A stretch of DNA of 7,496 bases from a virus (taxonomy: Duplodnaviria; Heunggongvirae; Uroviricota; Caudoviricetes): the IMG/VR virus record IMGVR_UViG_2695420687_000013, positions 1 through 7,496 of that record; one strand, given 5' to 3'. Below are positions 1 through 6,000 of the stretch, one piece after another. Position 1 is the first letter of the stretch. Every line of letters begins with the position of its first letter. A program made the position numbers.

Positions 1-3000
1 TATATCGCGTTATTAATGCCTGCCCAGACTATTCACTACTTTATGCTGTCACCCTACAGCGTGGTGATGGACGTTAAAATGCTCAATTTCTTTCGCCATA
101 TGAGCACAGCAACGTTAATCAGCGTGCACTCGCCTATGAACTGGCAATGGGATTTAGCTTTAAGGTGATGTATCTCACTGCGGCCATCGCATTTGTTCTC
201 TGCGGCCTGATAGTCTGGCTCTTTCTACCATCAATACAGAAAAGCATTCCTGCCACGACCCGCCCCGTAGATATGTCCACGACCTCTCACAGCCGACGAG
301 ATACCTGGTTACTTTTCGTGGTTTGTACAATGATGTGGGGTGCTAATAATCTTTACATTATCAATATGCCGTTATTTATTATTGATGAATTACATTTCAC
401 CGACAGATTAGCTGGTGAAATGATCGGCATTGCCGCCGGGCTGGAAATTCCGGCAATGCTCATTGCGGGTTACTTTATAAAACGCATTGGCAAGCGTTTT
501 TTAATGCTGATTGCCATCGTAAGCGGTATCTGTTTTTATGCCAGTGTATTGATGGCAACGACCCCTACCGTAGAGCTGGAATTACAAATACTCAATGCAA
601 TATTCCTGGGTATTCTCTGCGGTATTGGTATGCTTTACTTTCAGGACCTGATACCCGAAAAAATTGGCTTCGCCACTACACTATATGCCAACACCTCACG
701 CGTGGGCTGGATAATAGCCGGTTCACTCGACGGTATCATGGTCGAAATCTGGAGTTATCATTCCTTGTTCTGGCTGGCGATAGGTATGCTGAGCATCGCA
801 ATGATATGTCTGCTGTTTATTAAAGACGCTTAACTGTTTAAAACTAAAACAAGATGCTCCGTCATCAACACTGACAGCGCGCCCTTCCTCATATAGATAT
901 GCATTAATAATTGCAGCCACTACAACACCATTCTCTTTTTGCGCGTTATCATGATTTCCTTTACTTCTATGGTCATGACAACTGTTGCTATTTTCAGGAT
1001 TCGCCAGAACTGGCGTAACCAGAAATGAGATTGATACAACGGAGACAACGCCAGGCCATAGTCGTCAATTTTGCTATTATGTTCGTAAACATAAACGACA
1101 AAATTGAATGCAGAGGGAAAAAATGGGTTCCACCAGAAAGGGGATGCTGAACGTTTTGATTGCCGCCGTATTATGGGGGAGTTCCGGTGTCTGCGCACAA
1201 TACATCATGGAACAAAGCCAGATGTCGTCGCAGTTTCTGACAATGACACGTCTGATATTTGCTGGCTTTATTCTGCTGACGCTCTCATTTTTTCACGGCG
1301 ATAAAGTCTTCTCGATAGTAAAAAATCATAAAGACACCATCAGCTTGCTGATTTTTTCCGTGCTTGGTGCGCTGACAGTACAACTGACCTTCTTACTAAC
1401 CATAGAAAAATCAAATGCGGCTACGGCAACGGTACTACAGTTCCTCTCGCCAACAATTATTGTGGCGTGGTTCTCGCTGGTTCGTAAATCGCGCCCAGGA
1501 ATTCTGGTATTCGCCGCGATCATGACGTCGCTTATCGGTACTTTTTTGCTGGTGACTCACGGAAATCCCACCTCACTCTCGATTTCTCCCGCAGCACTCT
1601 TCTGGGGAATCGCCTCGGCTTTTGCTGCTGCGTTCTACACCACTTACCCCTCTACGCTCATTTCTCGCTACGGTACGCTGCCCATCGTCGGCTGGAGTAT
1701 GTTGATTGGTGGTCTTATCCTGCTCCCTTTTTATGCCAGGCAAGGAACAAACTTTGTNGTTNACNNNANCNTNATNNTGTTGTCAGGGCGGCGTCGCCGT
1801 CAGACCTTGCGGAAAAGCTGACACACAAACTGAAAGAGGGCTGGCAGCCGTTTGGTAGTCCGGTGGCCATAACCCCTTATACCCTGATGCAGGCGATTAC
1901 AGCAGAAGGTGATGTGGTGGTCAGTGGTGCAACTGAGCCGGATTGGTACTACGTCATCGTACTGGCCGGGCAGTCCAATGCCATGGCTTACGGTGAAGGG
2001 CTTCCGCTGCCGGATTCATACGATGCTCCGGATCCGCGCATTAAACAGCTGGCGCGCCGCAGTACAGTGACGCCGGGCGGGACTGCCTGCAGATATAACG
2101 ATATTATTCCGGCCGACCACTGCCTGCATGATGTGCAGGATATGAGTACGCTGAATCATCCGAAGGCAGACCTGAGCAAAGGGCAGTACGGCTGTGTCGG
2201 CCAGGGTTTACATATTGCCAAAAAACTGCTCCCGTATATCCCGAATAACGCGGGGATCCTGCTGGTACCATGCTGTCGTGGTGGTTCGGCATTCACCCAG
2301 GGCGCGGAGGGGACATTCAGTGCGGACACGGGGGCCAGCCAGGATTCGGCACGCTGGGGTGTGGGTAAACCGTTATATCAGGACCTGATTGCGCGCACTA
2401 AAGCTGCATTACAGAAGAACCCGAAAAATGTGTTGCTGGCGGTGTGCTGGATGCAGGGAGAGTTTGACATGAGCGCCGCCACCCACGCACAGCAACCTGC
2501 GCTGTTTACAGCCATGCTGACACAGTTTCGTGCTGACCTCTCCGTGTTTAACGCGCAGTGCCATGGTGGCAGTGCTGCAGATGTGCCGTGGATTTGTGGT
2601 GACACGACGTATTACTGGAAAAATACATACGCTACCCAGTACGACACCGTGTACGGCGGGTATAAAAACAGGGAGAGTGAGGGCGTTTATTTTGTGCCCT
2701 TCATGACAGACGGTAACGGCGTCAATACCGCCACTAACGCGCCGGCAGAAGATCCGGATATTCCGGCATCAGGATATTACGGTGCGGCATCGAGAACGAA
2801 TGGAAACCAGGTATCATCAAACCGCCCGACACATTTCAGTTCATGGGCGCGCAGGAGCATTATTCCGGATCGTCTGGCAACCGCTATTCTGAACGCAGCC
2901 GGGCGCACCTCCGCCTTCATCAGTGGTAAGGCACCGGAAATTAAACCCTCGCCCGGCGGCAACACGCCATCGGGTCCGTCTGCAGATACGTCCGTTCGCA

Positions 3001-6000
3001 CAATCTCCCTGCTGCCGGCAGCCGGAGAGGCTGCTGCGCAGGGCTGGAGCATTAAGGATGGCGGAATTCAGTTGTCAGATGGTGTATTTAAGATCACCAA
3101 GCAGAGCAATAAAACCTGGTCCCTGACGCATCCGGTGGATGACGCAATTACCCTGCTGACACAGGGCGGCAGACTGACCTGTAAGTTCCGCCTGTCAGGC
3201 GCACTGACCAACAATCAGTTCGGGCTGGGGATTTATCTGTATACGGATGCTCCCGTTCCTGATGGTGTGGCGATGACAGGTACCGGTAATCCGTTCCTGA
3301 TGTCGTACTTCACTCAGACCACTGACGGCAGAGTGAATCTGATGCATCACAGGAAAGCCGGAAACACGAAGCTGGGGGAGTTCGGCGATTACGGTAACGA
3401 CTGGCAGACGCTGGAGCTGGTGTTCACCGCCGGCAGTGCCACGGTTACTCCGAAACTGAATGGAGTGGCTGGCCCGGCATTCCAGGTCATAAAAGACAGT
3501 CTGACACTGGGGCTGAATGCACTGACGCTGACGGATGTTACAAAAAATGCAGCGTATGGCGTTGAGATAGAAAGTCTGGTGCTGGAGATAAATGCACCCG
3601 CAGCATAATAAAAAAAGCCAGCGCCCACTCTGAAGGACGCTGGCTAAAACGGGTAGATGTACTTCACATGATACTTATATCTGGCAGTACATTTTCTGAC
3701 AGATAGTGACGGATGTTGTCAAGATATTGTGTCATTTATAACCTGAATCAGGGGAGGCCGGAATGTTATCTGGCATTTTTAGCAGAGCCTGAATGCCATA
3801 ATCACGGCTCCCGGCGTTGGCCGTCAGTGGGTGACACTGGCGGCTTTTTTGTTTTTCTTTACTTTCATTTTCTGTCGGCGGTGACGGAGACATACATCAG
3901 ATGGAAAAAATCACAACAGGTGTGTCATACACCACGTCAGCGGTGGGGACGGGATACTGGTTACTGCAGCTGCTGGACAAAGTCTCTCCGTCCCAGTGGG
4001 TGGCGATAGGTGTGCTGGGGAGTCTGCTGTTTGGCCTGCTGACGTATCTGACTAACCTTTATTTCAAGATTAAAGAAGATAAGCGTAAGGCGGCGCGGGG
4101 AGAGTAAAGCGATGAAGAAAAAATACGAACTGGTTGTTAAAGGGATAAATAATTACCCGGATAAGATTACTGTTACTGTGGCACTGGAAATTGGTGGGTA
4201 TCCGTCACTGTTGTTGCCAAATGTGGCGATTAGTCTTGACCGTACTGAAGGTGCCACGCTGGAGTTTTACGAAGCGGAGGCGAAAAAGCAGGCGAAGCAG
4301 TTTTTCATGGATGTTGCTGCCGGGTTATGTGAAGGGGATGGTCCGTTGCCGGAAAAGCGCCCCGTCATTTTAGAGGCGCAGGATGTGTTGATAACCTACA
4401 GAGGAAAACTACCGGGAATAATTACTGGTTCTCTGAAGACTCCACCGCTGGCCTGAAGACTTAATATATCCAGGGATTTGAAATCGATAAACCCTGATAA
4501 ATATCCATGAACGCAAAAATCAGATACGGCCTGTCGGCTGCCGTTCTGGCGCTGATTGGTGCAGGGGCGTCTGCGCCTGAAATCCTCGACCAGTTTCTTG
4601 ACGAAAAAGAAGGTAACCACACCACGGCATACCGTGATGGTGCGGGTATCTGGACCATCTGCCGCGGTGCCATCCTGGTGGATGGTAAACCTGTCGTTCC
4701 GGGCATGAAGTTGTCGAAGGAAAAATGCGACCGGGTTAACGCCATTGAGCGTGATAAGGCGCTGGCATGGGTGGCGAAAAACATCAAAGTGCCACTGACT
4801 GACCCCCAGAAAGCGGGTATTGCGTCATTCTGTCCTTACAACATTGGCCCAGGTAAGTGTTTCCCGTCGACGTTTTATAAACGAATTAATGCAGGAGATC
4901 GAAAAGGTGCCTGCGAAGCGATTCGCTGGTGGATTAAGGACGGTGGCAGAGACTGCCGTATTCGCTCAAATAACTGTTATGGTCAGGTATCCCGTCGTGA
5001 CCAGGAGAGCGCTCTGGCGTGCTGGGGAATCGACAGATAAGCAGAATATTTTGCTGAAAAATGACGTTGGCCAGCGCGGGCGGATAACACGAAATCCTGC
5101 GAACTGGCAAAATGTAAGTGAATAAAGTTAGGCAGATTATTTCACGCAGAGGCACCGTAATGGTGCCTTTGTCATTTCTGCGCTTCGCACAAGCGTAAAT
5201 AAACCAAAGAACCTTTCAGGATGAGCCCTGGTGGATAACCGGCAGTGGTCTGGTTAACCCTCTTTGGGCTGGTTATTCCTGTGCGCAGGGTTCATCACTA
5301 AAAGGAATCAACCATGAAAGAGATGATTTCTGTCGATCATGAAATATCCATGAGTAGTCTGGATTTTCTGAATAACATTATTAATCCAGCCCGGGCAGAA
5401 GCCGGAGAAGTCCCTCATGAACCGCGTAAGTTTCTTGCAAAAATTGAGGATGAGCTAGAGCTTGATGGAACCGGAAAAAAATTCCGGTTAAACAATAACC
5501 AAACAAGAACGGCATACTATGATCTGGATTTTGACCAGATGATGCTCGTTGGCATGAGGGAGTCAAAGGCCGTTCGTCGTTCTGTGCTGGCAAGACTCAA
5601 AGCGATGCATGGTATTCAGATCCCCCGGACTTTACCTGAGGCGTTGCGATTTGCGGCAAAACTGGCTGAACAGAAAGCAGTGCTGGAAAATCAACTGGCA
5701 ATAGCAGCGCCGAAGGCTGAATTTGTTGATAACTATGTTGAAGCATCTGGTCTGATGGGATTCCGGGAAGTTGCTAAGTTACTCGGTATCAAAGAAACCG
5801 ATTTCCGGCTGTTTTTGTTGGAGAACGGAATAATGTATCGCCTCGCTGGAAAAATGACGCCTTACTCGCATCACCTGGATGCGGGGCGGTTTAGCGTGAA
5901 AACGGGCGAGGCGGGCAATGGTCATGCTTTTACGCAGGTTAAATTCACCCCAAAAGGTGTTCAGTGGATTGCTGGTCTGCTTGCTGCATGGAGAGCTACC

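Follow-up and report, generated by a model that had tools for sequence, protein, structure and literature searches.

A prophage NanS-p esterase gene with a probably artefactual 5' truncation in an Escherichia albertii-like genome record

Results

A NanS-p family esterase gene recorded without its first codons

The viral record IMGVR_UViG_2695420687_000013 (Caudoviricetes) was analysed over positions 1 to 7,496 (the window, 7,496 nucleotides). Sequence comparison establishes that the reading frame at 1779-3608 (+ strand, 609 codons plus stop) is a member of the NanS-p family of prophage sialate O-acetylesterases. As recorded, the frame lacks its start codon and is fused to the host gene yicL through a run of ambiguous bases; only 20 nucleotides (7 codons, start codon included) are missing. 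The loss of these first seven codons and the fusion to yicL are probably an artefact of assembly or of consensus calling, a reading that we draw from the sequence and hold with good confidence.

The frame aligned without gaps to residues 8-616 of an intact 616-residue SASA-family esterase of Escherichia coli FORC_042, with 605 of 609 residues identical. It is 99.3% identical to intact genes and contains no frameshift and no stop. Three Pfam domains were found, each above its curated cut-off: DUF1737 (PF08410, 46.1 bits against a cut-off of 24), SASA (PF03629, 48.6 bits against 24.8) and DUF6645 (PF20350, E 4e-18, residues 460-570). The DUF1737 match (frame residues 1-43, 1779-1907) covers profile positions 6-53 of 53, so that the domain is cut at its start. 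The SGNH/SASA esterase core (residues 52-372, 1932-2894) matched NanS/YjhS in the Protein Data Bank (PDB 3PT5) over 321 residues with an E-value of 1.4e-121 (phmmer), and the C-terminal lectin-like domain (3018-3596) matched the C-terminal domain of the structure named 'NanS-p' (PDB 6YP6; residues 414-606, E 8.6e-30). In NCBIfam, no model naming the esterase was found. The active-site blocks tabulated for 3PT5 are GQSNA (17), RGGSAF (120), MQGEFD (178) and R-x-SHFS (303, with the catalytic His) (PMC10792757). All four were conserved in the alignment, appearing in the window protein as GQSNA, RGGSAF, MQGEFD and R-P-THFS; the nucleophile Ser codon (in GQSN) lies at 1974-1976 and the catalytic His codon at 2832-2834. 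The product would be expected to de-O-acetylate Neu5,9Ac2 and mucin sialic acids, an activity documented for other alleles.

The original prediction, a NanS-p-type sialate O-acetylesterase with a long C-terminal domain directly upstream of the holin gene S, is borne out by the SASA match, the retained catalytic residues, the DUF6645 domain and the P21-type holin gene that starts at 3901. The esterase frame was also more GC-rich than its surroundings, as predicted (55.8%, against 45.5% in the host part and 48.7% in 3609-7445). By contrast, the 581-residue product then proposed covers no more than the part that begins at the first in-frame GTG (1863). It is an ORF-calling (open reading frame) artefact and not a natural product, since the intact homologue has 616 residues.

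Relatives at E ≤ 1e-20 numbered 1,603 in a protein search, nearly all of them from Escherichia and with the same three Pfam domains. Identity to the window protein was 85-99% for alleles of 616-618 residues and about 58% for the common alleles of 645-650 residues. Two database proteins among the top-scoring public family members (P0001 and P0002) carry internal duplications of about 90 residues and a foreign N-terminus, and look like the products of misassembled multi-copy nanS-p genes. Both the esterase gene and its family are known and the location is the usual one, with nothing new in the gene itself.

The junction between yicL and nanS-p

The sequence to the left of the esterase is E. albertii-like: window positions 127-1764 were 99.4% identical to E. 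albertii NBRC 107761, while identity to E. coli yicL was only about 83%. In the E. albertii strain, both genes of this flank are intact (setC, 394 residues; yicL, 305 residues). The window enters setC, a host sugar efflux transporter gene of the major facilitator superfamily (Pfam MFS_1), mid-gene and holds its 3' part (127-833, + strand), followed by the 5' two-thirds of yicL, a host EamA-family transporter gene (1108-1757, + strand; Pfam EamA, TIGR00950).

Between yicL and nanS-p, the 20 bases at 1758-1777 contain 10 scattered Ns. All 10 sit in columns where an alignment of E. albertii yicL with the intact nanS-p 5' end shows a difference, a placement with a probability of about 0.005 by chance. 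In 1765-1779, each called base is common to yicL and nanS-p, and position 1758 aligns with the A of the start codon ATG in the intact FORC_042 gene. An N at columns where two kinds of read disagree is the expected pattern of a consensus caller, and the junction looks like a mixed-read consensus.

The prediction that host sequence replaces the 5' end of the gene and everything upstream is right in that E. albertii-like setC and yicL precede the frame. The replacement is probably not biological, since the ambiguous bases lie exactly where yicL and nanS-p differ and the junction is one of three unrelated joins in 7.5 kb. The original prediction had overlooked that only seven codons are gone, that ten bases at 1758-1777 are ambiguous and that further joins are present at 126/127 and 7445.

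As recorded, the yicL frame enters the phage DNA out of frame and stops at 1821. The esterase frame has no start codon before GTG 1863 and ATG 1887, and no convincing ribosome-binding site precedes either of them. On the + strand, no promoter-like site was found before the frame.

Two other joins and the search for all three

At the left end of the window, a fragment of yccM, a 4Fe-4S binding protein gene (1-126, + strand; 89.7% identity to E. coli yccM in 5,410 genomes), adjoins the middle of setC at 127, and the two share no common sequence at the join. This clean join, without a repeat or an insertion sequence (IS) element, suggests that the record is a patchwork of fragments. At the right end, a fragment of the D-phenylhydantoinase gene hyuA (7445-7496, + strand; 96.2% identity to E. 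coli hyuA) begins exactly where identity to FORC_042 stops, about 80 nucleotides past a TonB-like gene, and is not syntenic with the phage block. In those E. coli records that were compared, torS is the neighbour of yccM, and setC-yicL lies next to a selenocysteine tRNA gene and nlpA, with hyuA elsewhere in each record listed.

No direct or inverted repeats, IS ends, attachment (att) sites or integrase were found at the three joins. No direct repeat links the joins at 1758-1777 and 7445, and the window contains no integrase ORF. The joins cut through the interior of the late operon and of host genes, unlike a genuine attachment junction between prophage and host. Site-specific integration into yicL was considered and rejected, as the junction lies inside the late operon and not beside an integrase or att site. 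As to position 7445 as an exact mosaic boundary between FORC_042-type and Stx1a-type (Shiga toxin 1a) phages, the homology of these phages resumes only further downstream.

None of the joins was present in 5,426 complete E. coli genomes, and none of these genomes covered 80% of the window. The yccM/setC pattern was not found in metagenome contigs, the yicL/nanS-p pattern was found neither in metagenome contigs nor in viral contigs, and the phage/hyuA pattern was not found in viral contigs. A single genome-contig scan returned the E. albertii type strain alone, with intact yicL. Look-ups for exact copies of the 581-residue ORF and of the truncated SetC gave no match.

The phage block itself (1778-7445) matched E. 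coli prophages as a single colinear piece, with up to 98.3% identity. The 5' portion of nanS-p was present in 2,176 of the 5,426 E. coli genomes; the median number of places in a genome was 2 and the maximum 13. Phages with stx1AB upstream of nanS-p and phages with TerB/DUF3927 there show no relationship before the ATG, their homology beginning inside the first ~10 bases of the gene. With unrelated upstream contexts meeting at the ATG, the 5' end of nanS-p is a branch point where short-read assemblies end contigs.

Late-region genes downstream of the esterase

The order of the block (nanS-p, S, YdfR, R, Ant, Rz/Rz1, TonB-like gene) is that of thousands of lambdoid prophages. The NanS-p site lies between Q/stx and S; its downstream half is seen in the window (S at 3901, then R, Rz and Rz1), and the upstream half falls outside the record, which turns to yicL at 1758-1777. 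All of the genes described here are on the + strand. The class II holin gene S of P21 type (3901-4107; Pfam Phage_holin_2_1, E 1e-32) is followed by a YdfR/DUF1327 protein gene (4112-4456; Pfam DUF1327, E 1e-45) and the endolysin (lysozyme) gene R (4507-5040; Pfam Phage_lysozyme). A KilAC-type antirepressor gene (5314-6009; Pfam ANT) interrupts the lysis cassette, lying between R and Rz; an identical protein was present in 7,103 index blocks of a public collection and is too widespread to be diagnostic. The spanin gene Rz (6247-6705; Pfam Phage_lysis), whose start was placed by analogy to the FORC_042 annotation, contains the embedded Rz1 (6458-6643; Pfam Rz1). The last gene (7038-7364; Pfam TonB_C, TIGR01352) encodes a small phage-borne protein with a TonB C-terminal domain. 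It is conserved in this position in many E. coli prophages, where it carries the annotation 'TonB family protein'. This protein, encoded after Rz/Rz1, has a signal or lipoprotein-like N-terminus (…LVMGC) and is absent from the Stx1a phages compared.

The gap of 290 nucleotides between nanS-p and S contains two strong hairpins. Both were detected by a consensus terminator scan as pattern matches only: a GC-rich hairpin with an 11-bp stem directly past the nanS-p stop (3616-3645) and a terminator-like hairpin with a T-run upstream of S (3819-3845, + strand). They may be late-operon terminators read through by Q-modified polymerase, and their presence would fit a late transcript antiterminated by Q in the intact phage. 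Neither the Rfam scan nor the tRNA scan gave a match in the window.

The toxin slot upstream of nanS-p

No toxin ORF was found in the phage block (1778-7445), a result that holds for the window only, the stx slot lying outside it; the original prediction had rightly stated that the stx position could not be assessed from this stretch. The closest relatives (98% identity) have the order Q, tRNA-Ile, TerB, DUF3927, nanS-p, and no stx. In E. coli O145 RM11626 (RM11626-C1, 415-3500), a prophage at the yehV site has an IS3 replacing all sequence upstream of TerB-DUF3927-nanS-p, and this remnant is an example of genuine truncation of the nanS-p module. In a phage collection, the best matches were Stx1a-converting phages (95% DNA identity over window positions 1778-6887), which carry stx1AB about 500 bp upstream of a 616-residue allele. 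Elsewhere, the same lysis module follows a stx operon, or PmrD- or AraC-type genes. The content of the slot upstream of nanS-p varies, and for the present block a context without toxin genes is more likely. The earlier framing around Stx2 phages was too narrow: this allele is closest to genes without stx upstream, and the next closest belong to Stx1a phages.

Discussion

Comparison with known NanS proteins and their phages

NanS-p of enterohaemorrhagic E. coli (EHEC; 933W L0105, phi24B gp84/vb_24B_21) resembles the window protein in its DUF1737-SASA-lectin-like layout, in its Ser/His active site and in its place directly upstream of a P21-type holin in a lambdoid late region. The window allele differs from the common EHEC forms in belonging to the 616-618-residue group, about 58% identical to the 645-650-residue alleles, in being recorded without its start and first seven codons, and in having a flank that is E. 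albertii-like and not E. coli. Chromosomal NanS (YjhS, 3PT5) shares the esterase core over 321 residues with all active-site blocks, but has no DUF1737 and no lectin-like domain at its C-terminus; it is part of the host nan regulon and not of a prophage.

The closest match was the prophage of FORC_042 (WP_024216036.1), together with O145:H28 prophages; in addition to the near-identical protein, they are colinear with the window from nanS-p to the TonB-like gene at 98.3% DNA identity. In FORC_042, however, an intact gene of 616 codons follows Q, tRNA-Ile, TerB and DUF3927, and the block continues into YnfO, HNH and terminase, whereas in the window both sides of the block are unrelated chromosomal fragments. 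The Stx1a-converting phages (Stx1_EH1995, LC567831) likewise have a nanS-p allele of 616 residues and, after it, S, YdfR, R, Ant and Rz, with 95% DNA identity to the window. They differ from the window in having stx1AB upstream and no TonB-like gene; the window shows no toxin genes, its upstream region being outside the record.

Artefact or real truncation

Were the recorded arrangement real, illegitimate joining would have had to occur three times independently within 7.5 kb, with ambiguous bases making up one of the joins, and we favour an artefact for this reason; contig concatenation or chimeric assembly is a far better fit. The intact yicL of the E. albertii type strain and the visibly misassembled database entries of the family also back this reading. 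Probably, a multi-copy phage contig that broke off at a mosaic boundary was linked to a host contig with no relation to it, and the real genome probably carries an intact nanS-p with ordinary phage DNA upstream. Several points weigh against an artefact. Four of the 14 mismatch columns in 1758-1777 (1759, 1760, 1763 and 1764) show the host base and not N, so that a simple consensus of two sequences does not account for them. Another nanS-p allele was considered as the source of these four host-type bases, but the N-termini MSIKHY, MTFKHY, MAFKHY, MSIKRY and MSINRY do not fit. The joins at 126/127 and 7445 contain no Ns, and truly truncated prophage remnants exist in relatives (for example the IS-bounded ones of E. 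coli O145 RM11626 and CP024134). Moreover, the artefactual nature of the joins is inferred from sequence.

If the join is real, which we regard as unlikely, an E. albertii lambdoid prophage has decayed to a remnant of 5.7 kb (nanS-p to the TonB-like gene) through a deletion that fused yicL to codon 8 of nanS-p. The start-less esterase would then be silent, or would be translated from an internal start (GTG 1863 or ATG 1887) on transcripts reading through from yicL. This arrangement is literally that of the record, and decayed E. coli prophage remnants that keep the same late block exist. Chromosomal NanS works without DUF1737, the 3PT5 match spanning the core only, and the Ns could have arisen if reads from further intact copies of nanS-p were mapped wrongly to a true junction at 1777/1778. 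Yet none of the three illegitimate joins needed has an IS element or repeats, the frame shows no decay relative to intact genes, the internal starts have neither a promoter-like site nor a convincing ribosome-binding site before them, and the junction was found nowhere else searched. A further step, in which an E. albertii lineage kept only the esterase-plus-lysis block and domesticated it as a phage-independent esterase expressed from the yicL transcript, is very unlikely; it would leave an esterase without the start of the capsid-binding DUF1737 beside a still-intact lysis cassette.

The origin of the block and the role of its product raise two other alternatives. The block may derive from a Shiga-toxin-converting prophage, with stxAB about 0.5 kb upstream of nanS-p in the real genome. 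The Stx1a-converting phages have just this spacing beside a 616-residue allele, an Stx operon (RIP and SLT_beta) precedes a 645-residue allele beside an identical Ant protein at another locus (L011), and the literature puts nanS-p directly downstream of stx (PMC10462455). We nevertheless find a toxin-phage origin quite unlikely: the closest relatives, colinear through the TonB-like gene to 7445, have no stx, the match to the Stx1a phages, which lack the TonB-like gene, ends at 6887, and nanS-p, found in 2,176 of 5,426 E. coli genomes and often multi-copy there, is far commoner than Stx phages are. As to the product, NanS-p may be a virion component, its DUF1737 anchoring hexamers on capsid hexons and its esterase and lectin domains being displayed or released by self-processing, helping the phage with mucus. 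This role is a tentative possibility. It has been described for phi24B gp84, a member of the NanS-p family, as a processed capsid-decorating protein whose DUF1737 binds the central hexons (cryo-electron microscopy and proteomics; 2026 preprint 10.64898/2026.04.10.717836), and the window protein has the same three-domain layout as gp84. On the other hand, the report concerns phi24B only and is a preprint only, and relatives of the phage in the window carry a head module with a Peptidase_S78-capsid fusion, such binding being known only from phi24B. A growth advantage of lysogens from NanS-p is also documented, and the two roles may coexist.

Meaning for the family and for the record

NanS-p was found downstream of stx2a and upstream of S in 59 of 59 Stx2a phages analysed, and is also reported from phages with other Stx subtypes and from prophages without Stx (PMC10462455). 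In the same study, nanS-p expression was higher under phage-inducing conditions, a growth advantage on Neu5,9Ac2 was reported, and the C-terminal domain was described as a jelly-roll carbohydrate-binding module. The label 'cargo' in the original prediction may be an incomplete description given the capsid finding for phi24B gp84, which makes the label questionable. In intact phages, nanS-p is probably transcribed with the late genes under Q antitermination. Its product would strip sialic acids (for example Neu5,9Ac2) of their O-acetyl groups and may make the O-acetylated sialic acids of mucin usable for the lysogen or its neighbours, in addition to decorating the capsid in at least one phage. 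The window holds a lambdoid late-region block carried in an E. albertii-like genome record.

The biological weight of the window is small, NanS-p having been characterised both structurally and enzymatically and the present allele being nearly identical to annotated E. coli prophage genes. Its value is that of a warning: with the record a probable patchwork, inferring prophage decay, insertion sites, truncation or toxin-phage status from it is unsafe without the reads. A real junction would offer a modest case of a prophage gene domesticated in E. albertii.

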